Positions 4,998 through 46,157 are shown, numbered from the stretch's first letter. The stretch is 52,466 nt of DNA from an uncultured Chitinophagales bacterium (GCA_964538485.1 CAZIHJ010000007.1:1-52466); one strand, 5' to 3'. Translations and numbers: made by a program. Notes: generated from the sequence alone by a model not told the origin.

Positions 4998-5105
4998 CGC
5001 GCACCAAGTTATCAAGTTCAACTCCGAATAGCAACACTCACGTTCGTTGATATTCGCGACCATATTGGTTACCTTTTCATATTCTCCAGCACAAGTGGTG
5101 AGAGT

Positions 5106-5765: not shown

Positions 5766-5783
5766 CCGTTCGGAGTTAAGCTG

Positions 5784-10828: not shown

Positions 10829-10838
10829 ACTTTTCCGA

Positions 10839-10868
10839 TGAAACTTTTGCTTCCAGAATAACGTCTAA
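10839..10868 (+). promoter_or_regulatory. ECF sigma-type promoter (TGAAAC ... CGTCTAA) upstream of the TolC-MacAB operon
   Basis: TGAAACTTTTGCTTCCAGAATAACGTCTAA = AAC-N18-GTCTAA with a T-tract after -35; same architecture upstream of both ECF genes. Confidence 0.7.
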
Positions 10869-10937
10869 TCTCTTGACATTACTGTACAAGAGGTGGCTTT
10901 TTCCTCCCGAAATCCCACTAAATCGATGGAGTCAGAT

Positions 10938-12302
10938 ATGAGATCCCTGGCAATAACCGGTAGTATTGTGATGGCCGGACTGCTTCTGTTTGTGAATCTG
11001 GGTGCTGCCCAGCAAAAAACGCTGACGCTTGATCAGGCGAAACAGATCGCTCTCGAGCAAAATCTCAATGTTGTTCAGGCACAGAACAATGTTGAATCAG
11101 CGCAGGCTCGAGCGCTCGCTGCACGCGGCGAGTACCTGCCATTTGTTTCGGCGTCCGCCAATTGGAGGAGATCTCAAAATGATAGCCCCGGAGGGTCATC
11201 GGTGGTCTTATCCAGTGGCCAGATCATTCCGGGATCGTCCGGGTTCAGCGTGAATAATTCCTTCTCAACAGGTATTGATCTGAGCTATACGATTTTCGAC
11301 GGTTTCCGCCGCGAGGGAAATCTCGGGGCAGCGACTTCGAATGCTGTTGCTTCGGAACATACGTCCACCCGTGCACGCCAGACAGTCATTTACCAAACGG
11401 AATCCGCGTACATCAGTGTCCTCAGGAACGAGCAGCTCGTAAAGGTCAGCGAGGAGAATCTTAAACGTGACCTCAGGCAGTTGGAGCGTATTACGGAAGC
11501 AAATCGTGTAGGAGCGCTTTCTCTTGCAGACGTATATCGCCAACAATCACAAGTTGCCCAGGATGAACTGACCCTGATCCGTGCTCAGAACGACTATGAT
11601 AAATCCAAAGCAGATTTCGTTGCGCTCATTGGCCTGGATGTGTTTGAAGAGTATCTGTTCACCGATCCCGGATTGGAGAGTCAACTTGCAGCTCTTGAGA
11701 ATGGTGTACCTTCCACGACGCAACCGCACAACGTGGGTGAGCTTACTCAGCGTGCAATTGCAGCGCGTCCTGACTATCTCAGCGTTCAGGAAGGATACGA
11801 TGCGGCAGAGTCCGGCGTCTCCTCGGCACGTGCGGGGTATCTGCCGACCATCTCAGCGTCGGCCGGGTATTCACTGTCGAATGACCGCCTTTCCCGGATT
11901 ACGGACAACAAGTCACTGAACTGGGGTATTGGACTTCGCTGGAATCTGTTTGATGGGTTTCAGACGAACCAGTCTCTGCAAGCGGCAATTGTGCAACGGC
12001 GAAATGCAGAGGTGTCGATGCACCAGGCGCAGCGTGATATCAGTGTCGAGATGAAGAAAGCATTACTGGACCTGGATGCTGCAGGCAAGGCCCTTGAAGC
12101 AAGTCTGAAAGGACTGAAGTCCGCCCAGGAGGATCGCAAGATTGCAGAGGAACGGTACAACCTTGGTGCCGGAACACTTTTGGACCTCTTGACGGCAAGT
12201 GCCGGCTACGTCAGCGCGCAAGCGAACAAGGTGAACGCTGCCTATGGATATATCATAGCACAGCGGAATATCGAGTACGTGCTCGGTGAACGTACCTACT
12301 AA
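10938..12302 (+). CDS. TolC-family outer membrane efflux protein
   Basis: Signal peptide, two OEP repeats (YLPFVS, YLPTIS), ERYNLGAGTLLDLL; GGAG SD before ATG 10938. Confidence 0.92.
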   Translation: MRSLAITGSIVMAGLLLFVNLGAAQQKTLTLDQAKQIALEQNLNVVQAQNNVESAQARALAARGEYLPFVSASANWRRSQNDSPGGSSVVLSSGQIIPGSSGFSVNNSFSTGIDLSYTIFDGFRREGNLGAATSNAVASEHTSTRARQTVIYQTESAYISVLRNEQLVKVSEENLKRDLRQLERITEANRVGALSLADVYRQQSQVAQDELTLIRAQNDYDKSKADFVALIGLDVFEEYLFTDPGLESQLAALENGVPSTTQPHNVGELTQRAIAARPDYLSVQEGYDAAESGVSSARAGYLPTISASAGYSLSNDRLSRITDNKSLNWGIGLRWNLFDGFQTNQSLQAAIVQRRNAEVSMHQAQRDISVEMKKALLDLDAAGKALEASLKGLKSAQEDRKIAEERYNLGAGTLLDLLTASAGYVSAQANKVNAAYGYIIAQRNIEYVLGERTY

Positions 12303-28929: not shown

Positions 28930-29334
28930 CTACACAAGAGCTCTCGGGTAGGTGTCCGGTCGTTGTGGATCGAATATCGCATCGGTTAACGCAATGGTAT
29001 ATAAGTCTTGTTCCCCGCTGTTGACGATGGCGTGCGATGATAGGGGCTCGACGGTCAGGAGTACGGCGCCACCTCCACTGAACTTGCGTTGCGTGATAGG
29101 TGTCCCGATTCCCAAGTCCCAGTACAGTGTCCATTCATCTCTGTGGAGAATGACGATAACTTCCTTCCGGACTTTGTGGAAATGATTGCCGCGAATGGCT
29201 CCCGGATGAAGCGTGGTAAGGTGGAGATCGACAGCGGAAGGGAGGAAGTCGCTCCATCTGCGGTCAACTGAGAAACTGCTCCCGCGCTTGTCACCGCGGT
29301 CTGTGAGTACTGATATGGAAACAGGGGATGTCAA
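28930..29334 (-). CDS. Small cupin-fold protein (WxcM/CapF-C-like sugar isomerase family)
   Basis: DKRG motif, RGNHFHKVRKE metal-binding His motif, SHAIVN. Confidence 0.65.
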   Translation of the reverse strand: MTSPVSISVLTDRGDKRGSSFSVDRRWSDFLPSAVDLHLTTLHPGAIRGNHFHKVRKEVIVILHRDEWTLYWDLGIGTPITQRKFSGGGAVLLTVEPLSSHAIVNSGEQDLYTIALTDAIFDPQRPDTYPRALV

Positions 29335-29463: not shown

Positions 29464-30591
29464 TTACCCCTTTTTCAACCGAATATCGCCGTTGATAGTC
29501 TTGATACGGACTTTGTTCTTGCCGCCACCGACGGAGCCAGTCCCATAAATGTACTTTCTTGGTGATCCATCGTCTCTTTTCCATTCCTTGGTATGTTCTT
29601 GTTGTAACGGGAAGTCGCTCAGAATTTGATAGTCACCGTCGCTATCCCGGGTATACGCCAGTGTGACCTCAAGTTCCATTGAAAGATCGGCAGGTACCGT
29701 CAATGTCACCTCGCCCCCCATGGAGGAAATTTCCACGTCACGTTTGCCGTCGCTTGCATTCCCCACCATGGTAACCGTAATATCGCCTCCCATGGTCGTA
29801 GCTTGTACGGAACCATCCACCGCAGAGATTTCTATATTGCCTCCCATGGTCTTTGCCTTTGCAAACTTTGCAGCGGAGCGGATTCGAATATCTCCACCCA
29901 TCGTATGCACATTCGCGCCATCCGGCGCATCATCGACATTGATGTCGCCACCCATAGTGTTGATGTTGACATCCGTTCCTTTGGCTTCTCCGGAACGTCT
30001 CTTCACATTTCTCTGTGTTATCTCCCCACCTTGTGAAGTCGCCTTCACGCCACCGGTGACATCCTCCACCAGAACTCTCCCTCCCATCGTCTTTACACTA
30101 CCATCGACATCAGATTGCCTGAGCGTGATCTCTCCACCCATCGTGACAAAATCAAGGCGTCCGCGAAGATTACTGAAATCCAGTTCACCACCCATCGTTC
30201 TTCCCTCCATGGTTCCCTCTACGCCGTCGATCTTTACCGCTCCTCCCATGGACTCGATATCGAGATCATATTTCTTCGGGACTTGAATTCTGAATCGTAA
30301 ATCCGAGCTTGTGTTCTTTCTCCGGCCGTCAAACCGCGCTGTGATTGAAATGCCATCCACATCTTCTTCGATTCTCACATCAGTGCGGTCGGCATCACGT
30401 CCGCGTTTGTCCACCTCCACCTTCACGGACTCCTTGTCCCATGCGGAGATTTCGATTGAACCTCCCGTTTCTATATCCACGGTGAGTCGATCGCCGCTCT
30501 TCGTTGGTAATTCCCGCTCAAGTTTTTCTCCACTCAATACCTGGGCACCAAGAAACAAGAATCCGATTGAGAGTATACAGAATCGTTTCAT
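29464..30591 (-). CDS. DUF4097 beta-strand-repeat secreted protein with (T/S)MGG repeats
   Basis: Signal peptide (GGAG SD before ATG 30591), nine (T/S)MGG[DENAR] repeats, C-terminal KTINGDIRLKK. Confidence 0.85.
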   Translation of the reverse strand: MKRFCILSIGFLFLGAQVLSGEKLERELPTKSGDRLTVDIETGGSIEISAWDKESVKVEVDKRGRDADRTDVRIEEDVDGISITARFDGRRKNTSSDLRFRIQVPKKYDLDIESMGGAVKIDGVEGTMEGRTMGGELDFSNLRGRLDFVTMGGEITLRQSDVDGSVKTMGGRVLVEDVTGGVKATSQGGEITQRNVKRRSGEAKGTDVNINTMGGDINVDDAPDGANVHTMGGDIRIRSAAKFAKAKTMGGNIEISAVDGSVQATTMGGDITVTMVGNASDGKRDVEISSMGGEVTLTVPADLSMELEVTLAYTRDSDGDYQILSDFPLQQEHTKEWKRDDGSPRKYIYGTGSVGGGKNKVRIKTINGDIRLKKG

Positions 30592-30618
30592 ATGATTCTC
30601 CATTGTAATCTTCATGAG

Positions 30619-33273
30619 TTATTGGCTCCACCAGTATGCCAGTTTCACCATAAGAATATTGTCTGCCTCCGCTTTGATCAGCCGTTGAAATGACCGGCCG
30701 AACCTGAAATTGCCGATTTCTTCTTCATCGACGCGACTTTGTGTCCAGACAAAGTACATTGTTGAACCGGGAAGGAATTCCCAACGCAAGACGGCGTTCC
30801 CCCGTAGTGATTTGAAATTGAAATCGGGGTTTGAGAACTCAATCGGTGCGGCCGGTCCAGCCCCGTCCGGATCAGCGACATAGCTGATATTGCCATTGTC
30901 ATCTGTTCGCTCGACCAGTGTCGAGCCATTCGCTTGACCGAAGATATCGAAATCATAGGAACGTCCGCGGGCAAGAGATTTGAAATTCGTAAACGCGCCG
31001 GCTGAGATCAGCGGCTGGATGTACACTTGCAGGCTGAGTTCCGGCGTAAAGGTCCAGTCCAACCGAATACTCGTTGAGAATGTTGTCTGTTGCATTTCCC
31101 CGAACACGTATCGCCGTCCATAAGTGGCTGTGGCGATGGGATCCGTGAAAGCCCCGACCCATTGCGATGCCTGGAAGTTGCGCGAAAGTGCGGGTGAGAG
31201 ACTGAGGGTTACGCTGGGCGCAGGCCTCCAGCGGAACTGCGTCCAAAGTTCCCAGTTATCTGTGTAGTCGGACCAATACGAGTACCATTCAAGGTCCACA
31301 AAGAAATCCCGCCGCACATCCGATTCAAACCCGACAAAATACTCCCGGCCCGGCGGTGTGATTGTTGATGGGCCACCCCTCGTCCGACGGATGCTGATTG
31401 TTTCGGGATTATATGCGAACTTCAATTCAGCGCTGTAGTAGTTTGGGAATTGCATGTAGAAATAATTCCAAATGCCCTGCCAGGTTATATTTCCGTCGAA
31501 ATCGTAACTGCGGAACAGGGCTGCGCCCAGCTCAAGCCAGCGATACACATCCGTTGGTTCGGACCACTTGTATCCTCCCGCAACATGCGAGTTGATGACA
31601 TCCGTGCGCGATTGAAAACCGAGATCATTCATCTCAAATCCCGGACTCACCAGGCCCAGTGAACCGTTGAGAAAGGAACTCCCCTTGGATTTTGTGAAAA
31701 AGAGGCGACTGATATATCCGGTCAGTGATCTGGCGCTACTATCAACGCTTACATGGCCGGCATCAGGCCGCTGATAATAGCGCGCAGAGCTTCGTTGCAG
31801 GGCGATCATGCGCTCGGGAGTTCCGGCAACATGGGAGAGAGCGCCGTATGCAGTAATCACCCAGGTACGCGATGAATCGAGGAATGTCCATCCGTCAAGT
31901 CCTACAAGTGTGCCCGAAGCGTTCATCTGATCTCGCAGCCTGTCGTCCTTGAACCCGCGCGAAGTCTGGGTTGCGAGCATGCCGATGCCATAGTGTCCAT
32001 TGTCGATCTCCTTCAGTGCGCGGGCAATGCCATAGTATGTGAGCGGTTCAACCTCGGAAGAGAAACGAGTCCCCGCCATTTCCAGATTTGCGTGTTCGCG
32101 GGCAGTGACGGCGTGTATTGTGCCGATATTCCAATTGTCTGCGACTTTGCCCGTCAGCTTCGCTGCACCGATAATGTCCGTTCCTGATGGAATCTCGGCA
32201 AAATCGGCATCGGGAAGTCCGCCCTGGGGTGTGCGACCGATACGGCGGCTGTAGAAGAATGTGGGTGTGCTCCAATTGAAACTCCAGTTGTTTGTCGCTC
32301 CTCCCTGGCCAAACCGGAGAGTACTGGATCCTTCAATAAAAAAAGGTCTTTTCTCTTGGAAGAACGTTTCTACATCACTCAAGTTGACCACTGCCGGATC
32401 GACCTCGACCTGCCCAAAGTCAGGGTTGACAGTGCCGTCGAGGGTAAGGTTGCTTCCCAAGCCAAGCTTAAAATCAGCGCCAACGCGAGATCCGTATGTA
32501 GAGCCGTCGTTGAACGGATCACCAGCAGCGTGACGTGTAAACTCTGCTTTGGTGGTGAGGTAGGGAAGAACCTCGAATTGACGGACCGGCGCGATACCTT
32601 GTATGCCAACCAGGTCAACGAAGCGGGAAACGAATCCTGTGCCATTCTTGGGTGTGTAGACGATGTAGTCCCGTTCGTTGGTACGAGTGAGATCGCGACG
32701 GAAGTTGATCCCCCAGACATTGTTCACTTGTTCATGAAATCGGAGTTGAGAGAAGGGGATGCGCATTTCGGCGCACCAGCCATTTGTGTTTATCGTGACC
32801 TTGCCTTCCCATATTCCATCCCAACTGTTATCGTCCCAATCATCATTCTCCAGAATTCCATCGTAGAGTGTGCCCGCTGCGTCAAGTCCGAAATAGAAAC
32901 CACTGCGTTTATCATGGTATGGGTCAACAAAGAACATGATTGCGTCTCCGTCTCCCCAGGAGTCACGTCTGCCGAGGCGTACTGCGATGGACTCAGGTGC
33001 GGTGTCGTGCATCTGCGTTGCCACATACAGTGCGGCATCATCGTACGCGATCCAGATTTCCGTTTTCTGACTCGGTGTGCCACCTTCCATCGGTTCACGC
33101 TGGGTGAATTGGGAGAATCCCTGCTGGTGCCAGGCCGGCTCGGAGAGAACTCCATCGATGATAATTGGTGTACCAGTTCTTACGGCAGTTACTGACACAC
33201 CAGGGGTTTGGGCGAGCAACAATTGTACGCACACCATCATGGCGATCGTCACCGAAAAACCAAATCGAAACAT
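30619..33273 (-). CDS. CBM9-like/DUF5916 outer membrane protein
   Basis: IDGVLSEPAW, W.AEMRIPFSQLRF, WGINFRR, TVNPDFGQVEVD, EKRPFFIEG, FFYSRRIG, NAVLRWEFLPGST, C-terminal KLAYWW. Confidence 0.88.
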   Translation of the reverse strand: MFRFGFSVTIAMMVCVQLLLAQTPGVSVTAVRTGTPIIIDGVLSEPAWHQQGFSQFTQREPMEGGTPSQKTEIWIAYDDAALYVATQMHDTAPESIAVRLGRRDSWGDGDAIMFFVDPYHDKRSGFYFGLDAAGTLYDGILENDDWDDNSWDGIWEGKVTINTNGWCAEMRIPFSQLRFHEQVNNVWGINFRRDLTRTNERDYIVYTPKNGTGFVSRFVDLVGIQGIAPVRQFEVLPYLTTKAEFTRHAAGDPFNDGSTYGSRVGADFKLGLGSNLTLDGTVNPDFGQVEVDPAVVNLSDVETFFQEKRPFFIEGSSTLRFGQGGATNNWSFNWSTPTFFYSRRIGRTPQGGLPDADFAEIPSGTDIIGAAKLTGKVADNWNIGTIHAVTAREHANLEMAGTRFSSEVEPLTYYGIARALKEIDNGHYGIGMLATQTSRGFKDDRLRDQMNASGTLVGLDGWTFLDSSRTWVITAYGALSHVAGTPERMIALQRSSARYYQRPDAGHVSVDSSARSLTGYISRLFFTKSKGSSFLNGSLGLVSPGFEMNDLGFQSRTDVINSHVAGGYKWSEPTDVYRWLELGAALFRSYDFDGNITWQGIWNYFYMQFPNYYSAELKFAYNPETISIRRTRGGPSTITPPGREYFVGFESDVRRDFFVDLEWYSYWSDYTDNWELWTQFRWRPAPSVTLSLSPALSRNFQASQWVGAFTDPIATATYGRRYVFGEMQQTTFSTSIRLDWTFTPELSLQVYIQPLISAGAFTNFKSLARGRSYDFDIFGQANGSTLVERTDDNGNISYVADPDGAGPAAPIEFSNPDFNFKSLRGNAVLRWEFLPGSTMYFVWTQSRVDEEEIGNFRFGRSFQRLIKAEADNILMVKLAYWWSQ

Positions 33274-33393
33274 GGCGATCAGTCCTTTTTCATTGTTTGT
33301 CTAACAGTGATTGTCGTTGCCCCTGCGGGTATTCCAAGGGTCCAGCTTCAGCACTGATGGTGTGTTGATAATGAGAGGTCCGACAAACCCGCA

Positions 33394-34533
33394 CTATCGT
33401 TTTCTAATATTGATATCAGAATTGACTGTTTCGAGCACGATGGTTTCTCCTCCACCATTTATGACGTATGTTGACCTGATTTCTTTTTCCTCGCGGTTAC
33501 CTGATTTGGTTTGCGATGGAAAGTCCGACCTGATCTCGTACGTTTCGTCATGGTCCCGCCACCGTCCCTGAATACGGATACGGGCTTCAATGGTTGCCTT
33601 TGCGTTTTCCGGAAGTATGAGAGTAATTTCACCCGCGGCCGAAGAAAGCCGGCTTCTCCCATTCCCGGACGGGGTCAATTCAGCGCGAATCTCGCCACCT
33701 GCTGTACGCGCTTCCACCGACCCGGAAATTCGCTCAAGGAGAACGTCGCCACCGCTTGTTGCTGCGCGAATGGAACCGCTTCCGCCTTTCAGTTGAATAT
33801 CGCCCCCCGATGTTTTCATGTCCACTCTTCCGGAGACCTTTCCTACGACGATGTTTCCGCCCGAAGTTGAGACCACTGCTTCGCTTCCCACATCACCGAT
33901 CATGATATCGCCGCCAGAAGTGGAGGCCTTCAACGACTTTCCCACGTCACCCAGCGTAATATTGCCGCCTGAAGTGTGAAGGGCAAGTTCACCGGTGATG
34001 CTCCGAAGGTCAATATCACCACCCGAGGTGTTCAGCGAGGCGTTCCCGGTGATCTTGCCGGTTCTGATGTCGCCGCCGGAGGTTCGGACTCTCACTTCAC
34101 CCTCTATATCATCCATCCTGATGTTTCCCGCGGATGTTTCCACGTCAAGGGTACCGATCAGTTTGTCCCGCAAGGTGATGTCACCGTGCGTGGTCTCAAT
34201 CGTGACATCAAACTGTGTTGGAATCGTAACCATCAACCGTGTCCCTTCATACCCCCAACCGTGACGATTGACAATGCGGACTGTATTTCCTGACTGTGTC
34301 ATCTTCAGGTCATCAATCTCTTCTTCATCAACATATTCAATCTTCACGGCAATTTCGTTCCGGTCCCATGTACTCAACCGAACATCGCCTCCATCGAGTG
34401 CGACGTCCAGCAGCCCACCTTTTGTGACTGTAAATGTTTTCTCCTTGAATCGACCATCATCATCCTTTTGGGCAGCAACAACTGCTGTACAAAGTAAAAT
34501 GACAGTGAGAATAGTGTGAATAGTCTCCTTCAT
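33394..34533 (-). CDS. DUF4097 beta-strand-repeat secreted protein with TSGG repeats
   Basis: Signal peptide, seven TSGG[DN][IV] repeats at an 18-aa period, C-terminal ETVNSDINIRKR. Confidence 0.88.
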   Translation of the reverse strand: MKETIHTILTVILLCTAVVAAQKDDDGRFKEKTFTVTKGGLLDVALDGGDVRLSTWDRNEIAVKIEYVDEEEIDDLKMTQSGNTVRIVNRHGWGYEGTRLMVTIPTQFDVTIETTHGDITLRDKLIGTLDVETSAGNIRMDDIEGEVRVRTSGGDIRTGKITGNASLNTSGGDIDLRSITGELALHTSGGNITLGDVGKSLKASTSGGDIMIGDVGSEAVVSTSGGNIVVGKVSGRVDMKTSGGDIQLKGGSGSIRAATSGGDVLLERISGSVEARTAGGEIRAELTPSGNGRSRLSSAAGEITLILPENAKATIEARIRIQGRWRDHDETYEIRSDFPSQTKSGNREEKEIRSTYVINGGGETIVLETVNSDINIRKR

Positions 34534-35498
34534 TGGTTCTCTACCTCCTGAAGTACTGCTTTGGAACGGATGCGTACGTAGTTATTATTGTCGGTTTGCA
34601 TTCGGTCATGTAATACGCGCTTCAACTCCTGATCAGTTCCGGTTCCAACAACTCGTGCCGAGTCGAGCGCGTTAATGGCAGCAATGCGGACACCGGAATT
34701 CTTATCGTGCATGAGTGCATATAAAAAAGCATCTTTGATTTCTTCGTCGAACTGGAATCCCCGTAATACGCGCAAGGCCTCACGGCGTACACCTGGATTT
34801 GTATCTGCTTTCAATGCGGAAACCAGGCCGGCTTTCAGTTCGCGATCAGGGAGCTTCAAACTCCGTGCTCCAACAGCATTGACCGATCGCAGTCGTATAC
34901 CAGGGTTGTGGTCATTCACCATGGCATGTGCGAGTGCCTGTTGCACCCGATCGTCGTTGACACTTCCCCTGATTCGCACTGGTGTTACTGCATCGAATGT
35001 AAATTCAATCTCGCCGTCGCTCGCATCCGAATCAATAAAACGAAGACCCGTAATGTGCGTTGAGCCCTGATTTGTTGATGTCAGTAAAGCGGCATTGGTT
35101 GAATCATTCGGGGAATCAGGAGAGAGGTGGGAGGATGAAAACCAGAAGTACCCACCGAGCAGTCCTGCGGCGAGCATCCCAACGCCGCCCAGGACAATGC
35201 GGTACGAAGGAAATATCGAATCCAAAAGCTCAAGAAAACGCTGTCCCACTGTTCGTTCTGATTCCTCCTGCGCTAGTGCCTGACGCAGTTGTGCTCTTGC
35301 TTCATTCAGAAGCTGCTCATTTACTTGAATTGTGTGCCGGTGAGCAAGCACACCGTGAAGCTGTTTCAGCTCTTCGAGTTCACGTCCACATGTCTCACAG
35401 TCTACCAGATGAGCCTGAAGTCGTTGGTATTCTGTCTCACTCAACTCATCATACATAAACCGGGGGAGGAGTCGCATGGCGTTCGTATGTTCCATCAT
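34530..35498 (-). CDS. Zinc anti-sigma factor (zf-HC2) with a TM segment and C-terminal HEAT repeats
   Basis: HLVDCETC (HxxxCxxC), TM IVLGGVGMLAAGLLGGYFWF, repeats D.N.G.R..A..AL; GAAGGAG SD. Confidence 0.88.
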   Translation of the reverse strand: MMEHTNAMRLLPRFMYDELSETEYQRLQAHLVDCETCGRELEELKQLHGVLAHRHTIQVNEQLLNEARAQLRQALAQEESERTVGQRFLELLDSIFPSYRIVLGGVGMLAAGLLGGYFWFSSSHLSPDSPNDSTNAALLTSTNQGSTHITGLRFIDSDASDGEIEFTFDAVTPVRIRGSVNDDRVQQALAHAMVNDHNPGIRLRSVNAVGARSLKLPDRELKAGLVSALKADTNPGVRREALRVLRGFQFDEEIKDAFLYALMHDKNSGVRIAAINALDSARVVGTGTDQELKRVLHDRMQTDNNNYVRIRSKAVLQEVENQ

Positions 35499-35505
35499 TT
35501 CTCCT

Positions 35506-36087
35506 TCAATCCTTCTCGTGGTATTCCCGCAGCAGCTCGCGCATCGCATGTGTAGCAAGAAAGAGATACCGTTTTACCGTTCCTTCGGTGCAGTCCATCA
35601 TTGTTGCAATTTCCCGGAGTTTGTATCCCTGATAATGCCTCAGGGTGAATACCATCTTCTGTTTTGGTGCCAGACAATCGAGTGCCGCTTCGATTCTTTC
35701 TGCAATTTCGGTGGTGATGCGTGCTTGATCAGGGGCGGCCGTGTCAGCCGTGATCGCTTGTGTATGTGGCTCTCCATCTTCATCAGTGAACGCCCCACGC
35801 ATTGGCGATTCCGTTTGTTGCTGTCTCCTTGTCCGATGAGTCAGGCATACATTCGTGGTAATTCTGTAAAGCCAGGTACTAAACTCACTCCGGAACTGAA
35901 ATTTCTTGATTCCTCGGAATACTCTGATAAACACTTCCTGATAAATATCTTTGGCATCGTCGGCATTTGACACGTAACGGGTGGCAATGGCAAGCACTTG
36001 TCGGTCGTAACGAAGAACAAGTTGCTCAAATGCCTCTGTATTACCGGCCTGGGCGCGTAGGATTAATTCATTCTCTGAGTATTGCAT
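35506..36087 (-). CDS. ECF RNA polymerase sigma factor (copy 1)
   Basis: AFEQLV, DAKDIYQEVF, FSTWLYRITTN, EIATMMDCTEGTVKRYL. Confidence 0.95.
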   Translation of the reverse strand: MQYSENELILRAQAGNTEAFEQLVLRYDRQVLAIATRYVSNADDAKDIYQEVFIRVFRGIKKFQFRSEFSTWLYRITTNVCLTHRTRRQQQTESPMRGAFTDEDGEPHTQAITADTAAPDQARITTEIAERIEAALDCLAPKQKMVFTLRHYQGYKLREIATMMDCTEGTVKRYLFLATHAMRELLREYHEKD

Positions 36088-36114
36088 GCAGGCCTGGTGA
36101 TGGTGTTCTGTGCA

Positions 36115-36144
36115 TTAGACTTGTGACGCAGGAAAAAGGTTGTA
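36115..36144 (-). promoter_or_regulatory. ECF-type promoter upstream of sigma copy 1
   Basis: Minus strand TACAAC-CTTTTTCCTGCGTCACAA-GTCTAA (AAC-N18-GTCTAA), ending 27 nt before the ATG. Confidence 0.7.
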
Positions 36145-36163
36145 GTCGCAGGAGGGAAAAGGG

Positions 36164-36196
36164 GGGCCGAATGAACACAATTGCAGAATCCGGCCC
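36164..36196 (-). terminator. Weak hairpin separating the two ECF units
   Basis: GGGCCGGA/TTCGGCCC 8-bp stem with one G-U pair, 17-nt loop, CCCTTTT tail. Confidence 0.4.
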
Positions 36197-36211
36197 AAAT
36201 TGTCGGCATTG

Positions 36212-37204
36212 TCAGCAGTGGATGGACAATTGACGTGTTCCTCCACTCGTTTTTGAGAGACTCTCCCTAAATGAATGGTGCAAGTCCTCCATTTCAAAAC
36301 GAAGATCATCCCTCAAATGGTCGAGCTCAAGCCGAAGCTCCTCCAGCAGTGGGTCCAATTCTTCCATTTCGAAGCCAAAGTCATCCCAATCGTCCAGTCT
36401 CTCATGAAGGTCCCCACGAAAATAATATTGGTATCCCCTTGGTGAATTGAGGTCGCCTACATCCATTGTAAGCTTCATGGAGCCGCCTTTGCGAAGAATC
36501 TCGACGTCCACCTTTTCGTCGTTGTCGTAGTTGTTCAGCGCCCTTCGAATGTCGCGAACATCTTCAATGACGTCTTTGCCGATTTTTGTAATCACATCGC
36601 CGGCTTTGAAGCCTGCTTTCTCTGCCGCGCTTTCTTCTTCGACCTCTTCAACGAGTACCCCACGTTTGTTCGGTGCCTGAAAATACGCCCCCAGTTGCTC
36701 GTTGAGTTCCCGCAGTTCAAGTCCCTTTACGCCCGATCTCTCGAGCATGTGCATTGCAGGTGGGATCGGAGGGGCGACAGCAACCGCCCGCCGGCGTGGA
36801 ATTGCGCCCAGGGTTACTTCCAGCGACATCCGTTCGTCTCCTCTGACGACAACGAGGTTTGCCGCGGTCTCTGGTTTGGTAGCTCGTACTGCGTCCGAAA
36901 GGTCCGAGGCATCATTAATTGTTATTCCTTGAAATTCAACGATGATGTCTTCATTCCTAATGCCTGCCTTTTCCGCCGGACTATCATCCACAACATCATT
37001 GACAAGAGCTCCTTTGGTGGTCTTGCTGTTGATTGAACGGGCAAGTCGCGATGTCATGTCCTGCGTAAATACTCCCAGCCATCCGCGATCCCTCGATTTG
37101 TCTTTGACTACTATGACATCGGGAGGTGCTGCAAGCTGCGGACTAATACTCCCAGTAAACAGTGTGGCCAGGCAGACGATACAGCCGAGTATGAATATCT
37201 TCAT
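36212..37204 (-). CDS. Secreted tandem-PDZ protein without a protease domain
   Basis: Signal peptide; RGWLGV...SPAEKAGI...DII and GVLV...SAAEKAGFKAGDVI; acidic helical tail; no trypsin domain. Confidence 0.85.
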   Translation of the reverse strand: MKIFILGCIVCLATLFTGSISPQLAAPPDVIVVKDKSRDRGWLGVFTQDMTSRLARSINSKTTKGALVNDVVDDSPAEKAGIRNEDIIVEFQGITINDASDLSDAVRATKPETAANLVVVRGDERMSLEVTLGAIPRRRAVAVAPPIPPAMHMLERSGVKGLELRELNEQLGAYFQAPNKRGVLVEEVEEESAAEKAGFKAGDVITKIGKDVIEDVRDIRRALNNYDNDEKVDVEILRKGGSMKLTMDVGDLNSPRGYQYYFRGDLHERLDDWDDFGFEMEELDPLLEELRLELDHLRDDLRFEMEDLHHSFRESLSKTSGGTRQLSIHC

Positions 37205-37266
37205 TTGTCATTCCTTCGTTGTTTGCGGCTTTTCAATACGGACGATATTCCTGTTGCATTGTTTCG

Positions 37267-38400
37267 TTACTTTCCTTTCAAGACTTCGTAGAGTGCCCCC
37301 CGGGCCTTTTCTCCTCCGATATTTCCAAGATAGTATATGGCATCGCGCCGAAATCCGTAGTTATTGTGTGAAAGGGCCACTGTTCTGAGAAAATCCACCG
37401 CCTTGTCATTCCCCACTTCGGCAATCGCATAGAAAATTGTTTCAACCGGTTCGCGACGTTGGTGCGGTATGCTATTGAAGAGATCAATCAATAGTCCCAC
37501 GGAACGGTTTTTATCCGGTGTTTCGTTACCTATGAAATCAATGGCATACGCCTGGAGTTGTTCGTTGGTGTCCTTAAGAACAATTTCCATGAGCACGGGA
37601 AGGACATCATGCTTTTTGAAATCAACGAGGACATCCAACGATGCCTCACGCAAGGGAAGGGGCTGTTTGATGTCAACCGCAATGTCACGGAGTGTTGCAA
37701 AGGATTTGTCGTCCTCCTTTGCTTCGCCGAGTGCATACAGCGCCTCCATCTTGAGGCGTGTTTCGGGATCGAGGTCTTCATCAACATTCATTGCCAGGGG
37801 AGTCATGCTGATTCCCCTTGGGTACCGCCAGCGTACCATGGATCTGCTTTGTCTTTTAAGTTGGCGCTCGACATCGCGCATGTGTGGAGCCATTGAGTAT
37901 GCATATCCGCCGCCGGGTGCTTTGGTAATACTCACTGCACCGGCTGATGTCCCCGGAGCGATGACATACACATCAGATTCAAGTTGAGCAAGATCAGAGA
38001 TGGCATCGTCGTAGTAACTGCTCTTCGGATACTGCTCGATGAATTGCTCGTATGCAGCTGTTGCCTTTTTCCTATCCTGGTGTCGCAATGCGTAAGCCGA
38101 CCAGTACCGTGCATCATCAACGTACTCGCTCTTGGAGTACTTGCTGATGACTTCGGTAAATTTCTTGCGTGCTTCGTTCCATTGCTCGTCAAGAATCAAT
38201 GTGTATCCCTCTCGATAGGTGTTGTACGCCGGGTCATCGGATTGTTCCTGGGCGAGCGGAAGCAAAGAGAGAGCCGCTGCAGGCGGGCGATCCGGTGGAG
38301 GTGATGTTGCTGCACGCGCTCGTGATGTCGTGGTCTGTGCATGAATGGAAACAGCCGCGAGCAGCACGAACGCGAGGTGATAGAGAGATATCCTGTTCAT
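37267..38400 (-). CDS. Secreted TPR (BamD/YfiO-like) plus HEAT-repeat protein
   Basis: Signal peptide, WNEARKKF...SEYVDDARYWSAY, YPKSSYYDDA, then HEAT-like helices (RRDAIYYLGNIGG). Confidence 0.8.
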   Translation of the reverse strand: MNRISLYHLAFVLLAAVSIHAQTTTSRARAATSPPPDRPPAAALSLLPLAQEQSDDPAYNTYREGYTLILDEQWNEARKKFTEVISKYSKSEYVDDARYWSAYALRHQDRKKATAAYEQFIEQYPKSSYYDDAISDLAQLESDVYVIAPGTSAGAVSITKAPGGGYAYSMAPHMRDVERQLKRQSRSMVRWRYPRGISMTPLAMNVDEDLDPETRLKMEALYALGEAKEDDKSFATLRDIAVDIKQPLPLREASLDVLVDFKKHDVLPVLMEIVLKDTNEQLQAYAIDFIGNETPDKNRSVGLLIDLFNSIPHQRREPVETIFYAIAEVGNDKAVDFLRTVALSHNNYGFRRDAIYYLGNIGGEKARGALYEVLKGK

Positions 38401-39203
38401 AATACACTCCTGGAGTATTTTGCATGAATCAATCGTACCGAGTCTCTTGTTGCTTCGGCCATCCGGATCTTAAAAAGGAGGTTTTCCTGTTCGATGCCAC
38501 TGCGGATGATTTCGACGTTGGGAAGATCTGATTGTTGTTCCATGTTTGCCAGTTCAATAAGAATTTTCTGGAGATCTCTTAACAAGAGAACGGAACGGGG
38601 ATCGAGGTGTTCCTCGCCGAGGTTTCTGGCCTCCCGAATCAATTCCCGTGACACTGTTCGTTCAACTGAAAGGTCAACAGGACTACCATCAGCTGTTTTC
38701 AGATTTGAGAGTCCGACCAACAACACCTTGGAGCGGCGCAAATATTGTCCCATCGGGTCTACCGTGTTCTCAACATGTTGCACAGTGTTCAGAGGAGGTT
38801 CCGGGTGCGCCGTCTGCCGACGCATCCATTCGTTTGATCCGAACCATAACAGCCCTAAAACTGCCACCGCACCTCCCGTAGCAACCATAAAGCGTCGTTG
38901 TGGAACAATAGTATCGTGAAGATATGAGAAGGGAGTCTCCCACCACTTCATGGGTGGCGGTGATGATTTTGCGATGCGTCTCTCCACGCTTCCTGCAAAT
39001 GCATCCCAGAAGGCAGTTTGCCGTTCATCTGCCGGAGACAAGGAAGGTGGTAATACCTCTGCAAGAGTTGACCGTAGCCCTTGTAATTCCTTGGCGCACT
39101 CAATGCAAGATGCGAGATGGTGTTCAACTTCGTTGTGCAGTGTAGGGGAGAGTCCGTCGTGGAGATAGTCATACAATTGTTGTCTAACGGCTTTGTGTGT
39201 CAT
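38397..39203 (-). CDS. Zinc anti-sigma factor (zf-HC2) with a TM segment and helical periplasmic domain
   Basis: HLASCIEC, TM FMVATGGAVAVLGLLWFG; ATG 39203 overlaps the sigma stop (ATGA). Confidence 0.85.
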   Translation of the reverse strand: MTHKAVRQQLYDYLHDGLSPTLHNEVEHHLASCIECAKELQGLRSTLAEVLPPSLSPADERQTAFWDAFAGSVERRIAKSSPPPMKWWETPFSYLHDTIVPQRRFMVATGGAVAVLGLLWFGSNEWMRRQTAHPEPPLNTVQHVENTVDPMGQYLRRSKVLLVGLSNLKTADGSPVDLSVERTVSRELIREARNLGEEHLDPRSVLLLRDLQKILIELANMEQQSDLPNVEIIRSGIEQENLLFKIRMAEATRDSVRLIHAKYSRSVL

Positions 39204-39760
39204 AATGCCATTTCCGTTCTGAAATACTCCAGACGTGTTCGCATTTTCTTCAATCCACGAAACAGATGGGTTTTTACCGTTCCTTCCGAGCATGCAAGTA
39301 TTCCACTTACCTGTTTTGTTGAGAGCCCTTCGATATGGCGGAGCAGCACTACCGCTCTTTGGAGTGTGGGCAGTTCGTGTAATGCCTTTTCAATGTGTGT
39401 TCGTAGTTCCCCGTTCTCCGGTGTCTCCTGTGCGGCATAGGGAGTATGGTGTTCTCGCTCTTCATTGAGGGCGAAACGTGCCCCATGTGCCTTCTCTTTT
39501 TTTACACGGTTGAGTGCCATGTTGGTGACGATGCGATACAGCCACGTGGAAAACTCGGCATCTCCGCGAAAGGATGGTAAACCTTGATACACACGGACGA
39601 ACGCCTCCTGTGCCACGTCTTCGGCCTGTTCGTGGTTACGGAGAAATCCATGTGAGATGTTGTACGCCTGCTTCATGTAGCGCTCAACGAGCTGGCGGAA
39701 TGCCTCATGGTTTCCCTCCTGTGCTGCAATGATGAGTTGCCGTTCATCGGCAACGCCCAT
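39200..39760 (-). CDS. ECF RNA polymerase sigma factor (copy 2)
   Basis: AFRQLVERY, AEDVAQEAF, FSTWLYRIVTN, GTVKTHLFRG; start placed at ATG 39760. Confidence 0.95.
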   Translation of the reverse strand: MGVADERQLIIAAQEGNHEAFRQLVERYMKQAYNISHGFLRNHEQAEDVAQEAFVRVYQGLPSFRGDAEFSTWLYRIVTNMALNRVKKEKAHGARFALNEEREHHTPYAAQETPENGELRTHIEKALHELPTLQRAVVLLRHIEGLSTKQVSGILACSEGTVKTHLFRGLKKMRTRLEYFRTEMAL

Positions 39761-39791
39761 GTGGAGAACCTGTTCATGTGTTTGGTGATGT

Positions 39792-39821
39792 TTAGACAAG
39801 ACAGGGAGGCAATCGGTTGAC
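39792..39821 (-). promoter_or_regulatory. ECF-type promoter upstream of sigma copy 2
   Basis: Minus strand GTCAAC-CGATTGCCTCCCTGTCTT-GTCTAA (AAC-N18-GTCTAA), ending 31 nt before the ATG. Confidence 0.7.
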
Positions 39822-39900
39822 ATATGAAGGAGGATGTTTTGAGATATAACTACGTTTGGAGGGGTCAAAAGATACGGAAGGGAGCCATGTTAAAAACACC

Positions 39901-39929
39901 GTGCCGCCCGGTGAACAACCGGACGGCAC
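39901..39929 (-). terminator. Intrinsic terminator after SdrD-B protein A
   Basis: 11-bp stem GTGCCGTCCGG/CCGGGCGGCAC with one G-U pair on the minus strand, followed by GGTGTTTTT. Confidence 0.7.
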
Positions 39930-39960
39930 AATGGAGGCAGAAAAGAACAACCTTGTCTTT

Positions 39961-42789
39961 TTACCGCAGGAGGCTCATTTTCTTCATTTCCACAACATCG
40001 CCGGACCGCATCTGGTAGAAATAGATACCACTACCAACCTGCATACCGTTAGCGTCGCGGCCATCCCAGGTAACTTCATGCATGCCGGCTTCGATCATGC
40101 CATCCATCAATGTGCGGACTTCCTGGCCAAGTGTATTGTAGATTTTCAACGTAACCTGGCTCGCCTCGGGAACCACGAAATAGATTGCAGTTTCCGGATT
40201 GAACGGATTAGGATAGTTCTGCATCAACTGGGCCGTGGTCGGAATCTCTTCCTGACCGGCAATACCACTTCTGTTCAGCGGACATCCCTGCTCGTTGAAG
40301 TCCTCGAAGATATTCTTCAGGGTTTCGTAGTTCGAGCTGTTTCCAGGATACACATTGTTGAACATGGTGATCACTTGTTGCGTAGTCAGATTATAGTCGA
40401 TACCGTCTGACTTCGCGTTCAGGAGGGCTGCCACAGTATGACGTCCGAGAGCATTGAGGCCGCCACCGTTTAGCTGCAGTACCTGCAACAAGGTCTTGCT
40501 GCCGAATGCGTTGTCAAACACATCCTTGAATTTTGTCCACGGCTTATACGGATAAGGCCATGAATCGTAGTGCTGGCACTGTTTCCAGTAACCAGGTGTA
40601 CAGCCGTCTCCACCGCTTTGCTCGCAGTATCCAAAATCAATCGTGAGGTCGACCTTGGTGTCTGTCGAAAGAACCACACTCGACGGACTGCAGTTGCTGT
40701 TGGAGCCGTTGCTGGCTACGTTGCTGCATGTCGTTGCGGTATACCCGGGCGGCAATGTGCTTGTTTCGACTTTTACCGAATAGCATCCTGCGCACAAGCC
40801 TGCAAATTCATAGTAACCATTTGCATCGGTTACTGTGGTTTTGATCTGGTTGTCAGGACCGTATAATTTTACTGTCACACCCGCAATGCCCGGTTCACCG
40901 GTGTCCTGGTATCCATCGCAGTCAGTGTCTTTCCAGACACGGTCACCGATCTTCCCTGAACACTGTGGCGGTGGAACGCAACCGAACTCCAGCTTTCTGA
41001 TCTTGAACTGGTCTTCCGGAGTCGTGTCCGCGATATCGGCCGCGATCACCAAAACGTTCGCAAAAATCTGCCCGCCGTTGAAGCTCGCCCATCGGGCACT
41101 ACTGCTGCCTGTTTCGTTTTGCTCGGTGAGCATGCCGGATAGTACGGCATCACTGAGGGTGGTATGGTTGTTGAATGGGTCAGCCAGGGTTCCGAACCAT
41201 ATGGAGATATCGCTATCCGTTACGATCGCATCGAGGAAGGCACGGGTCAGCACGACCGGTGTGGAAAACTCGAACAACACGTAGTTGTTCTTGTCGATGT
41301 TGTCCACCCGATGAGAACCGTTTCCGCCGCTGCCCTCGTATCTATCGGTGACGCCGAGACCCGAACTATACAATCCGAGGTAACCGGTCTCCCAGGTGGC
41401 AGCATTCTTGAACCGACTGAACGCGCTCACCTTTACTGAGATGCCGTTGACCGTAAAGGTGCGGATGTTGCCATATGTCCCGGATGTTGACGTGTTCCCA
41501 GTAAAAGAGAATATGCCGGACACGCATGGCGGTGGTTCGCAATAGCCAAAATCAATAGTGCGATCCTCGCTGGTGTTTGTCTCAAGACAAACAGGTGCAG
41601 GGCTACAATTACTATTATTAGCAACGTTCGGAGCGTTAGTACATGTGGTTGGTGTATAACCTGCAGGAAGGGTCGTTACATCGACAACGATAGTATAACA
41701 TTCGGCGCACAAACCGGCAAACTCATAGTATCCGTTTGCGTTTGTTGTTGTAGTTGCAAGGACGTTATCGTTGCCATCAAGAAGCTTCACCGTAACACCG
41801 GCAATCCCCGGTTCACCGGCGTCTTGAATACCGTCACAATCGAGATCCTTCCAAACAAAATCACCGATCAGGCCTTCACAAGAAATCGGTACTGACAACG
41901 CGGAAGCAACCCATGTAAATGATGCAGGCCGCTCCTCGGGCGTATTCTCATCTTCATCGCCACCCGGACCGGAGATTGCCTGAACAGTGACTTCAGTTTC
42001 TCCTGCGGGGATATTGACGTTCAATGAGTAGGTATCCCATTCCTCTCCTTCGTTGCTGTTCAAAACGTCATCGTAGTTCGTTGTGATCCCACCGACAGTC
42101 ACACTGATCCGGCTCGGACGAAGAATCCCGCCTGTTGATGCTGTTCCCTGAACACTCGAAAAGAACATATTGAGTGGTGCTATTCGGGCCGAAGTTGAAG
42201 GTGCAAACGTGAAGGTTTGAGCAACCGATGCATCAAGCGGGCTGGCAAAGAATCTATACAAACAGTCATTTCCATCACTCAATTGAAGGTCCACATCGTT
42301 GCCATCGTCATAGATAACGAGGATGCCGGCTCCGTTTGCTGCGCGATCATAGATAAGTCCCTCTACTGAAACAGCATTTGCTCCGTCAGTTATCACATTC
42401 AGGGATGTAATATCTGCACGATACGTTGTGCTGTACGTGGGTGTCGTACCGCCCGTGAGGAAGAAATTTGTCGGACCACCGATAAGGGTGCCCGTCACGG
42501 CGTTGCCATTGACCACAATGTCCTCATCGCCAGTGGCACTGAAATTCTGGCCCTCCCAGTACAGTAGTACCTGCTGTACGGTTGCTCCGGCCGGGACGTT
42601 GATATTGATGATACCCGGCTGAGTCAGGAGCCCGACTCCTGCAGCTGCAATACCCGATCCTCCGGCGATTGCGATTGAAGGTGCGCCAAGAGTCTCTGTT
42701 CCATCTGCGAGCAGTGGAGAGATGCTCGACAGCATCAATAGCAGAACAGCAACCCCACACCTCCAGGAATTGGAGACGAAGTTATTCAT
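39961..42789 (-). CDS. Secreted SdrD-B-repeat protein A with T9SS/FlgD-like C-terminal domain
   Basis: Signal peptide, N-domain, SdrD-B (IGDFVWKDLDCDGIQD...DFGY), X domain, second SdrD-B, GCTPGYWK domain, QNYPNPFNPET...GIYFY CTD. Confidence 0.88.
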   Translation of the reverse strand: MNNFVSNSWRCGVAVLLLMLSSISPLLADGTETLGAPSIAIAGGSGIAAAGVGLLTQPGIININVPAGATVQQVLLYWEGQNFSATGDEDIVVNGNAVTGTLIGGPTNFFLTGGTTPTYSTTYRADITSLNVITDGANAVSVEGLIYDRAANGAGILVIYDDGNDVDLQLSDGNDCLYRFFASPLDASVAQTFTFAPSTSARIAPLNMFFSSVQGTASTGGILRPSRISVTVGGITTNYDDVLNSNEGEEWDTYSLNVNIPAGETEVTVQAISGPGGDEDENTPEERPASFTWVASALSVPISCEGLIGDFVWKDLDCDGIQDAGEPGIAGVTVKLLDGNDNVLATTTTNANGYYEFAGLCAECYTIVVDVTTLPAGYTPTTCTNAPNVANNSNCSPAPVCLETNTSEDRTIDFGYCEPPPCVSGIFSFTGNTSTSGTYGNIRTFTVNGISVKVSAFSRFKNAATWETGYLGLYSSGLGVTDRYEGSGGNGSHRVDNIDKNNYVLFEFSTPVVLTRAFLDAIVTDSDISIWFGTLADPFNNHTTLSDAVLSGMLTEQNETGSSSARWASFNGGQIFANVLVIAADIADTTPEDQFKIRKLEFGCVPPPQCSGKIGDRVWKDTDCDGYQDTGEPGIAGVTVKLYGPDNQIKTTVTDANGYYEFAGLCAGCYSVKVETSTLPPGYTATTCSNVASNGSNSNCSPSSVVLSTDTKVDLTIDFGYCEQSGGDGCTPGYWKQCQHYDSWPYPYKPWTKFKDVFDNAFGSKTLLQVLQLNGGGLNALGRHTVAALLNAKSDGIDYNLTTQQVITMFNNVYPGNSSNYETLKNIFEDFNEQGCPLNRSGIAGQEEIPTTAQLMQNYPNPFNPETAIYFVVPEASQVTLKIYNTLGQEVRTLMDGMIEAGMHEVTWDGRDANGMQVGSGIYFYQMRSGDVVEMKKMSLLR

Positions 42790-46019: not shown

Positions 46020-46157
46020 ATACTTACCCCCTATATTGTGGATTGTGTGAGTTACGTGAATTGCCATTGCCATGTTTATGACTGAAATTGAGGAGTACTT
46101 TGATCCCGCAGTTGATTGCGGGAAATGAACAATGTTAGATTTCTTTTGACGAAGAGA

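Follow-up and report, generated by a model that had tools for sequence, protein, structure and literature searches.

A stretch of 52,466 nucleotides from an uncultured Chitinophagales bacterium (GCA_964538485.1, CAZIHJ010000007.1:1-52466), in the following called the window, carries nine co-directional genes on its minus strand, which were found by open reading frame (ORF) calling within the window at 29464-39760. They form two units, each headed by the genes of a sigma factor of the extracytoplasmic function (ECF) type and of an anti-sigma factor. We consider it rather probable that these are two separable, positively autoregulated sigma operons of the RpoE/AlgU type, which happen to stand in tandem in this genome. 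Gene content, export signals, protein folds, two promoter classes and invariant core trios of genes were observed, and the signal would be damage to the outer membrane or to envelope proteins.

Gene content of the two units

In the order of transcription, the upstream unit (unit 2) encodes, according to the Pfam and NCBIfam matches, the RpoE/SigW-like ECF sigma factor 2 (39200-39760, 186 amino acids, minus strand like all genes of the locus), the zf-HC2 anti-sigma factor 2 (38397-39203, 268 amino acids), an exported protein with TPR (BamD/CpoB-like) and PBS-lyase-type HEAT repeats (37267-38400, 377 amino acids), and an exported DegP/DegQ-like PDZ1-PDZ2 protein with an acidic helical tail (36212-37204, 330 amino acids). 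Unit 1 follows with the RpoE/AlgU-like ECF sigma factor 1 (35506-36087, 193 amino acids), the zf-HC2 anti-sigma factor 1 with a HEAT_2 match (34530-35498, 322 amino acids), an exported DUF4097/LiaG-like toastrack protein (toastrack a, 33394-34533, 379 amino acids), an exported DUF5916 protein combining a CBM9 fold with a large predicted outer-membrane beta-barrel (30619-33273, 884 amino acids), and an exported paralogue of the first toastrack (toastrack b, 29464-30615, 383 amino acids). An initial annotation of this region had described two consecutive units with an ECF-type promoter each. All nine minus-strand ORFs, their domains and the two promoter motifs were confirmed, and the Pfam and NCBIfam domains agree with the composition it gave for unit 2, namely sigma, anti-sigma, TPR/HEAT and PDZ-PDZ. 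The composition given for unit 1 (sigma, anti-sigma with HEAT repeats, DUF4097, DUF5916, DUF4097) is found by Pfam for all but the last gene. Its product has no Pfam DUF4097 match at E<=0.01 but is homologous to toastrack a over the full length (27% identity, E=1e-36).

The gene starts needed some attention. A start of sigma 2 at a TTG codon at 39868 was ruled out because the promoter would then fall within the longer ORF, and the in-frame ATG at 39760 results in a normal ECF sigma factor of 186 amino acids. Anti-sigma 2 most likely starts at 39203, with an ATGA overlap with the stop codon of sigma 2, because its orthologues begin there. With these starts the junctions in unit 2 are, in order, a 4-nucleotide overlap, another 4-nucleotide overlap and 62 nucleotides, while those in unit 1 are 7 nucleotides, a 4-nucleotide overlap, 120 nucleotides and 3 nucleotides. 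The gap of 124 nucleotides between the PDZ gene and sigma 1 contains the sigma 1 promoter. Thus, as had been annotated, most junctions overlap or are shorter than about 65 nucleotides, the exceptions being those of 124 and 120 nucleotides. Both TPR-HEAT and toastrack a start within the 4-nucleotide overlap with the stop of their anti-sigma gene.

The annotated membrane anchor or signal peptide of every non-sigma product was also recovered as a prediction. Each anti-sigma factor has one hydrophobic segment, and all five other non-sigma proteins have an N-terminal one. In four of these five (TPR-HEAT, toastrack a, DUF5916 and toastrack b) the signal-like segment is followed by a cleavage-type motif of alanine and glutamine (HA/Q, AA/Q, LA/Q, GA/Q), whose glutamine shows about 90% conservation among the TPR-HEAT proteins. 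A "Q-rule" for signal peptidase I substrates has been described for Bacteroidetes, and it does not hold across the whole Fibrobacterota-Chlorobiota-Bacteroidota (FCB) group (PMC5837995). The putative cleavage motifs of the window fit the rule of the Bacteroidetes.

Two separate promoter classes

The motif CAACC-N16-18-GTCTAA has only two matches in the window, one at 39792-39819 and the other at 36115-36142. They are on the minus strand, have a spacer of N17, and lie 25-30 nucleotides upstream of the two sigma start codons. By chance 0.06 matches are expected, and two or more were found in 0 of 100 shuffles. For comparison 164 related loci were analysed in total, including a genome set anchored on anti-sigma 1 (one genome per species, 80 loci) and a metagenome set anchored on the TPR-HEAT protein (80 further loci). 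Taking the window together with 72 related loci, 72 of the 73 regions upstream of sigma 1 have the motif ccnCAACC[T/A]TTT followed by [A/G]GTCTAA, with 16-17 nucleotides between AACN and GTC and with the motif ending at a median of 23 nucleotides before the start codon. In the window this is the sigma1-type promoter CTACAACCTTTTT-N-AGTCTAA (36112-36145, minus strand). Similarly, TGTCAAC[C/G]-N-TGTC[T/C]AA is kept in 51 of the 53 regions upstream of sigma 2, and is represented in the window by the sigma2-type promoter TGTCAACCGATT-N-TGTCTAA (39792-39822, minus strand). The two classes have the AAC...GTCTAA core and the spacing in common and differ in their flanks, which are conserved within each class (TGTCAACCga...TGTCTAA for sigma 2 versus ccnCAACCtTTT...aGTCTAA for sigma 1). 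When the sites were scored with the position matrices of both classes, the other class scored higher at none of the 72 sigma1 and at none of the 42 sigma2 sites. The separation of the classes without a single misassignment argues for two insulated, autoregulated paralogues and not for a cascade.

Judged by sequence, both sigma genes would be preceded by an autoregulatory promoter of the RpoE type (GGAAC-N16/17-TCTAA type). The consensus of the Escherichia coli rpoE P2 promoter is GGAACTT-N16-TCTAA, and the AAC...GTCTAA core and the spacing of both motifs are typical of RpoE-type promoters. Another candidate for an element upstream of the sigma genes, AAC-N10-12-CGT, was overturned by comparative footprinting. 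In a number of related loci (L027, L040, L092, L093, L101, L104, L114, L117 and others) the palindrome AAGGGATCCCTTG or a variant of it is located directly before the start codon of sigma 2, where it could pair across the ribosome-binding region. There is no clear equivalent of this leader palindrome in the window.

The sigma factors themselves are consistent with this picture. Both contain Sigma70_r2 and Sigma70_r4_2 domains (E 1e-15 to 1e-19), as is characteristic of ECF (group IV) sigma factors, and both exceed the cut-off of the sigma70-ECF model TIGR02937 (113 bits vs 42.9). Their best relatives in PDB and NCBIfam are AlgU, sigmaE and SigW. Both score far under the cut-off of 236 bits of the RpoE equivalog TIGR02939 (120.6 bits for sigma 1 and 116.3 bits for sigma 2), and also under the SigW equivalog cut-offs. 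In the published ECF classification, ECF03 is described as occurring mainly in Bacteroidetes. The two sigma factors of the window are 39% identical to each other. Between the two sigma families, region 2.4 (TWLYRI) is near-identical and both helices of region 4.2 differ systematically (GyKlrEIA / EGTVKkyLF vs GLSTkqVS / EGTVKTHLF). From the same region 2.4 and the different region 4.2 one would predict that the -10 element is common to both promoters and that the -35 flanks diverge, which agrees with the motifs.

The initial annotation had suggested that the two units might be a sigma cascade or a cross-activating pair, in which one sigma factor transcribes the operon of the other or both read both promoters, resulting in a single amplifying circuit. 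The equal spacing of CAACC-N17-GTCTAA at both promoters, the paralogy of the sigma factors with their near-identical region 2.4, and the lack of a terminator between the PDZ gene and sigma 1 would favour such a circuit, as would the recurrence of tandem units in several lineages and the shifting of the accessory genes PDZ and DUF5916 between the units. Against it, each sigma gene has its own promoter class only, the classes being fully separate by their flanks across 72 and 42 distinct sites, and region 4.2 differs systematically. In addition, the two units are apart in most genomes, being adjacent in 4 of 55 and 7 of 39 loci, and the closest relative of the window does not have unit 1 at this locus. 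We therefore regard a cascade as unlikely.

Two conserved core trios and a mobile pool of accessory genes

All synteny counts refer to the loci where the contig leaves room for the gene in question. The relatives in the genome set are almost all metagenome-assembled genomes (MAGs) labelled Ignavibacteria/Ignavibacteriota, Chlorobi-type or "Bacteroidota", and MAGs of Ignavibacterium and Melioribacter carry unit 1 (L022, L059). Sigma 1 precedes anti-sigma 1 in 73 of 73 loci of this set and toastrack a comes next in 72 of 72. A DUF5916 gene is found within 5 kb downstream in 32 of 53 loci, and a second toastrack gene in 15 of 53, where it may be located before DUF5916, after DUF5916 or in a locus without DUF5916. 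Unit 2 lies directly upstream of unit 1 in 4 of 55. In the metagenome set, the TPR-HEAT gene is accompanied by anti-sigma 2 in 54 of 54 and by sigma 2 in 46 of 46 loci. The next gene after TPR-HEAT is PDZ in 18 of 39, sigma 1 (i.e. a tandem arrangement) in 7, DUF5916 in 4, and another gene in the remaining 10. In 8 of 29 metagenome loci the sigma 2 promoter has just upstream of it, in the same orientation, a distant DUF5916 paralogue (about 30% identity to the window protein), before which no ECF-type promoter was found. Loci with a DUF5916 paralogue before sigma 2 are L027, L040, L087, L092, L095-L097, L101, L104, L105, L114, L117 and L118.

The closest relative of the window (L161; GCA_046160825.1, JBJXHC010000075.1) has the same flanking genes, with an aldehyde dehydrogenase that is 90% identical. 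Its gene order is sigma 2, anti-sigma 2, TPR-HEAT, PDZ, a gap of 447 nucleotides, and DUF5916 (80% identity), and within the gap there is a sigma1-type promoter. At this locus it does not contain sigma 1, anti-sigma 1 or either of the toastrack genes. Its DUF5916 is called as two genes (4829-7923, 544 and 337 amino acids), and either a frameshift or an error of the assembly may be behind this. The arrangement nearest to that of the window is that of L001, where eight of the nine are present. Conservation thus concerns not the set of nine genes but two cores of three genes each, together with a small pool of mobile accessory genes.

Gene-neighbourhood analysis, which had been named in the initial annotation as a way to check its proposal, revealed synteny well beyond this genome. 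The idea of the nine genes as one conserved whole did not hold, given the few tandem arrangements (4/55 and 7/39) and the closest relative without the core of unit 1. The suggested recurrence of parts in Acidobacteria or Gemmatimonadota found little support, with no locus of the genome set labelled Gemmatimonadota and only two labelled Acidobacteriota.

In some lineages toastrack a is followed by an inserted gene (L007 12190-14259, L027 12095-13990, L040 12227-14164), whose product of 630-690 amino acids has a thioredoxin fold (AhpC-TSA/Redoxin) at its C-terminus. TPR matches were found for the proteins of L007 and L040 and not for that of L027, and the next gene is a DUF5916 paralogue in L007 and L027. 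Such an insert fits a theme of protein folding in the envelope.

The anti-sigma factors

Both anti-sigma factors have zf-HC2 matches and a single hydrophobic segment, which would place them in ZAS-type class I. The HxxxCxxC motif is invariant in 31 orthologues of anti-sigma 2. It is nearly invariant in anti-sigma 1 and is missing from some orthologues. In anti-sigma 2 the N-terminal domain matches RsiW when searched as a profile against PDB (5wuq_C, E=1.5e-4). It is followed by a single transmembrane helix and by a periplasmic domain of about 115 amino acids, which is conserved and for which no relative was found in Pfam or PDB. The model of anti-sigma 1 (predicted local distance difference test, pLDDT, 82) begins with a helical cytoplasmic domain (the ZAS domain) and a single transmembrane helix; a disordered linker comes next, then a three-strand cap and finally a HEAT solenoid. 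A fold search with this model retrieved generic HEAT/ARM repeats only. Concerning the HEAT repeats of anti-sigma 1 and of the TPR-HEAT protein, we considered that they might be duplicated modules, and rejected this since the profile comparison gave a probability of 0.9% and no specific relationship.

The exported proteins of unit 2

The TPR-HEAT protein has TPR_6/YfiO and HEAT_2 matches, and in the TPR part it is similar to CpoB and to the TPRs at the N-terminus of BamD. The PDZ protein aligns with PDZ1-PDZ2 of DegP, DegQ and MucD-type proteases (DegP/DegQ chain residues ~230-470). No protease domain was matched in it and the signal peptide runs straight into PDZ1, so that it is not an HtrA/DegP/DegS protease. 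A sigma2-type promoter of its own (TGTCAACC...TGTC[T/C]AA) precedes the PDZ gene in at least nine loci outside the window, among them L011 and L091, where this gene is located downstream of unit 1. The PDZ gene is thus a target of the sigma2 promoter. In the window, no internal promoter was found in the gap of 62 nucleotides before the PDZ gene, and it is probably co-transcribed with unit 2.

The toastrack proteins and DUF5916

Toastrack a matches DUF4097 (PF13349) with 71.9 bits versus a gathering threshold of 22.9 and is LiaG-like. It also matches the NCBIfam models LiaG and LiaX, to which toastrack b has matches under the cut-off (LiaG 1e-11). The DUF5916 protein has 192.7 bits against PF19313 (threshold 22.6) and a borderline match to CBM9_1 (23.3 vs 23.4). 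Its AlphaFold2 model, built with 35 orthologues (mean pLDDT 78, pTM 0.74), comprises an N-terminal beta-sandwich and, starting near residue 230 and reaching the C-terminus, a large all-beta barrel. The N-terminal domain matches the CBM9 fold (1i82, TMt 0.72, E=8e-8). The barrel has weak fold matches to MtrB, SusC, TonB-dependent receptors, SlpA and SprA, with TM values of 0.2-0.34 for SusC and TonB-dependent proteins. The most conserved stretch, residues ~284-346 (NPDFGQVEVDPAVVNLSDVETFFQEKRPFFIEG...), with an invariant segment at 284-315, is modelled worst (pLDDT 29-42) and may represent a plug or a partner-binding loop. At least 8000 homologues of DUF5916 exist. PDB sequence searches with DUF5916 and toastrack a gave no match.

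DUF5916 is a target of the sigma1-type promoter. In most cases it would be transcribed together with unit 1, and at separate sites it still has RpoE-like elements before it. The closest relative has a perfect sigma1-type promoter before DUF5916, and in a MAG labelled Latescibacteria (L164) a perfect sigma1-type motif precedes an aminotransferase-DUF5916 pair that adjoins a unit-2-like module. In a KSB1 genome (L162) the DUF5916 gene stands alone and is preceded by CAACCTTTT-N18-GTCGTA, and in four further loci (L130, L139, L044, L047) [G/A]AAC...GTCTAA is present 12-37 nucleotides before its start codon. In the window, no internal promoter was found before DUF5916, which is probably co-transcribed with the upstream genes of unit 1. 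As a marker of a wider regulon, the relaxed pattern [GA]AAC-N17-19-GTCTAA was not supported overall, with 12 matches versus about 22 expected; four of the 12 are directly before DUF5916 genes.

An RpoE-like look-alike (TGAAACTTTT-N-CGTCTAAT) is located at 10838-10871 on the plus strand of the window, 22 nucleotides before a TolC-like OEP gene (10893-12302), which is followed by genes for HlyD, an ABC ATPase and two MacB/FtsX permeases. This site is only a candidate for an additional member of the regulon, as chance alone would give about one match to the relaxed pattern per window. AAAC...TGTCTAA sites also precede ORFs in L088 and L145 whose N-termini appear HlyD-like by eye.

The barrel gene could also be understood as the input of the system. 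In such trans-envelope signalling, the DUF5916 barrel with its CBM9 domain would sense a ligand, for example a glycan, outside the cell or at the outer membrane and pass the signal through the toastrack to the HEAT domain of anti-sigma 1, in analogy to FecA-FecR-FecI or to pairs of SusC-like proteins and anti-sigma factors, although with unrelated components. This would account for an outer-membrane barrel being encoded in the sigma/anti-sigma operon in 32 of 53 loci, for DUF5916 paralogues adjoining unit 2 as well (8/29), for the carbohydrate-binding fold of the N-terminal domain, and for the invariable coupling of toastrack a to anti-sigma 1. However, DUF5916 is dispensable for the core trio, being absent in about 40% of the loci, and is found alone in KSB1, and its family of at least 8000 members far exceeds that of the anti-sigma factor. 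As a target of the sigma1-type promoter it is more likely an output than an obligatory input. Moreover, FecR, STN, Plug and TonB_dep_Rec have no above-threshold match in the nine proteins, so that the locus does not qualify as a Fec-type system. Input through the barrel is thus rather improbable. The same low probability is given to a broader, undescribed chain independent of TonB, which would lead from the state or ligand of the barrel via toastrack a to the HEAT anti-sigma 1, with unit 2 monitoring the assembly of the same barrel and the PDZ protein reading C-termini such as the conserved ...YWWxx end of DUF5916.

Toastrack domains are recurrent partners of envelope-stress regulators, including operonically linked sigma factors, and most of them are predicted to be intracellular (PMC11237479). 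The least probable explanation is that of a membrane-stress module of the Psp/Lia type, with the toastracks as core scaffolds or sensors of membrane damage like LiaG, LiaX, LiaF and YvlB and with sigma/anti-sigma in place of LiaRS, for which the LiaG and LiaX matches of both toastracks, their recurrence beside such regulators and the invariant position of toastrack a beside anti-sigma 1 would speak, and which is contradicted by the lack of PspA, PspC and LiaI-LiaF-TM among the nine genes and the scanned flanking genes of the window (the related loci not having been screened), by the cleavable signal peptides that would direct the toastracks to the periplasm, and by the co-regulation with an outer-membrane barrel, which would speak for the periplasm or the outer membrane and not for the inner membrane.

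Genes flanking the locus

The genes flanking the locus are unrelated to it. Upstream, on the minus strand, two genes (39961-42789 and 43146-46073) encode large SdrD_B-repeat proteins that end in sorting domains for type IX secretion, and a protein with a type IX secretion system plug domain is encoded at 7092-8405 on the plus strand. Both findings agree with an origin of the window in the FCB superphylum, and the bacterium was taken to be Ignavibacteria-like. A strong terminator-like hairpin with a stem of 16 bp followed by TTTTT (39897-39933, minus strand) is located at the end of the nearer gene for a SdrD_B/type IX cargo protein. It lies upstream of the sigma2 promoter and sets this gene apart from unit 2. 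Downstream follow a Polysacc_synt_C fragment, an aldehyde dehydrogenase and further genes. The fragment, an ORF of 134 amino acids (28930-29334, minus strand), matches only the C-terminal part of Polysacc_synt_C and has a counterpart of 131 amino acids at the same place in the closest relative. This ORF could represent a small protein or else a remnant that has been conserved. Scanning the window with Rfam and for tRNAs gave no matches, and neither did an exact look-up of one window protein.

A model of two autoregulated envelope-stress operons

In our preferred model, that of two separable autoregulated operons, the zinc-binding (HxxxCxxC) cytoplasmic domain of each single-pass anti-sigma factor would hold the cognate sigma factor at the inner membrane. 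A disturbance of the periplasm or the outer membrane would be read by the periplasmic domain of the anti-sigma factor together with its translationally coupled exported partner. These would be the novel helical domain and TPR-HEAT in unit 2, and the HEAT solenoid and toastrack a in unit 1. The anti-sigma factor would then be inactivated, most likely by regulated proteolysis in analogy to RseA, MucA and RsiW, and the released sigma factor would transcribe its own operon from its own promoter. Sigma 2 would thereby drive expression of itself, anti-sigma 2, TPR-HEAT and the protease-less PDZ1-PDZ2 protein, which we take to bind envelope proteins that are unfolded or C-termini that are exposed. 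Sigma 1 would drive itself, anti-sigma 1, toastrack a, the DUF5916 protein with CBM9 domain and beta-barrel, and toastrack b.

Several points weigh against this model. The proposed insulation would depend on the conserved flanks, while the two promoters have the same core, and cross-talk may occur through this common AAC...GTCTAA core or by tandem read-through. A terminator-like site was sought between the PDZ gene and sigma 1 and none was seen, and in this genome unit 1 may be read from the unit 2 promoter. The locus does not contain a gene for a site-1 or site-2 protease, and the RsiW protease PrsW was not searched for. The analogy to Rse/Muc would be one of architecture only, as the anti-sigma factors are not homologues of RseA or MucA. 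There are no matches to RseA_N, RseA_C or RseB/MucB in the proteins of the locus, which sets it apart from Rse/Muc systems proper. In addition, the HxxxCxxC motif could act as a cytoplasmic thiol/redox sensor in the style of RsrA/ChrR.

The broader claim of the initial annotation, that two ECF/anti-sigma units with a promoter each make up an uncharacterised locus for extracytoplasmic sensing and response, is supported. It had also stated that no experimental characterisation of the whole gene set was known. This agrees with our literature search, which found nothing on point for DUF5916, for toastrack with anti-sigma, for DUF4097 with ECF, or for HEAT-repeat anti-sigma factors.

Pairs of ECF sigma and anti-sigma factors are among the major routes by which bacteria signal, and beyond Proteobacteria and Firmicutes little is understood of how envelope stress is sensed. 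The locus provides, for the Ignavibacteria lineage within the FCB superphylum, two sharply defined motifs that could be used for regulon prediction. New periplasmic parts are found in the two invariant trios, a HEAT-solenoid anti-sigma factor with a toastrack, and a novel helical anti-sigma domain with a TPR-HEAT protein. DUF5916, a large family for which no literature was found, obtains a first functional handle and regulatory context, with RpoE-like promoters upstream of it in loci from MAGs that carry the labels Ignavibacteria/Bacteroidota, Latescibacteria and KSB1. Finally, paralogous sigma factors with the same core promoter and different flanks are a useful case for promoter insulation. 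The general picture of how ECF systems function is unchanged. To judge from their sequences, the two units are RpoE-like ECF modules for envelope stress, which are conserved throughout the Ignavibacteria lineage and have novel partners in the periplasm and the outer membrane.

Comparison with known systems

The kind of system is familiar in that both sigma factors appear RpoE/AlgU/SigW-like in sequence and promoter. Like FecI-FecR-FecA and the ECF/anti-sigma/SusC-like signalling of Bacteroidota, the locus encodes a sigma factor, an anti-sigma factor and an outer-membrane beta-barrel together. In contrast to these systems a FecR domain is lacking, the barrel does not belong to the TonB-dependent transducers, and its gene is a target of the sigma factor that is often absent or located elsewhere.

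With the toastracks LiaG, LiaX and LiaF of the LiaFSR system the proteins of the window share the DUF4097/toastrack beta-helix fold family, and LiaX, an extracytoplasmic toastrack that modulates an envelope-stress regulator, provides a precedent. However, the regulator in the window is an ECF sigma/anti-sigma pair and not a histidine kinase with a response regulator, and the toastracks are predicted to be soluble and exported to the periplasm of a diderm, without a LiaI-LiaF-TM/PspC partner.

SigW-RsiW of Bacillus subtilis resembles the locus in the domain of anti-sigma 2, which matches RsiW, in the ZAS motif and in the single-pass topology. It differs in belonging to a Gram-positive bacterium without an outer-membrane component and in its unrelated extracytoplasmic domains. 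The SigW regulon includes the toastrack protein YvlB. YvlB has been discussed in the context of its pspC operon (PMC11237479).

Compared with rpoE-rseABC of E. coli and algU-mucABCD of Pseudomonas aeruginosa, the anti-sigma factors of the window are of the zf-HC2 (ZAS) type, there is no match to the RseB/MucB fold, the DegP-like protein has no protease domain, and both sigma factors are far under the RpoE equivalog cut-off. The HEAT, toastrack and DUF5916 accessory proteins are without counterpart there. On the other hand, AlgU, sigmaE and SigW are the best relatives of the sigma factors, and a promoter of the AAC-N17/18-(G)TCTAA type, with predicted autoregulation, is found upstream of the sigma genes here as it is there. 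In addition, the order of unit 2, with sigma factor, single-pass anti-sigma factor, exported partner and DegP-like PDZ protein, parallels that of algU-mucA-mucB-mucD.

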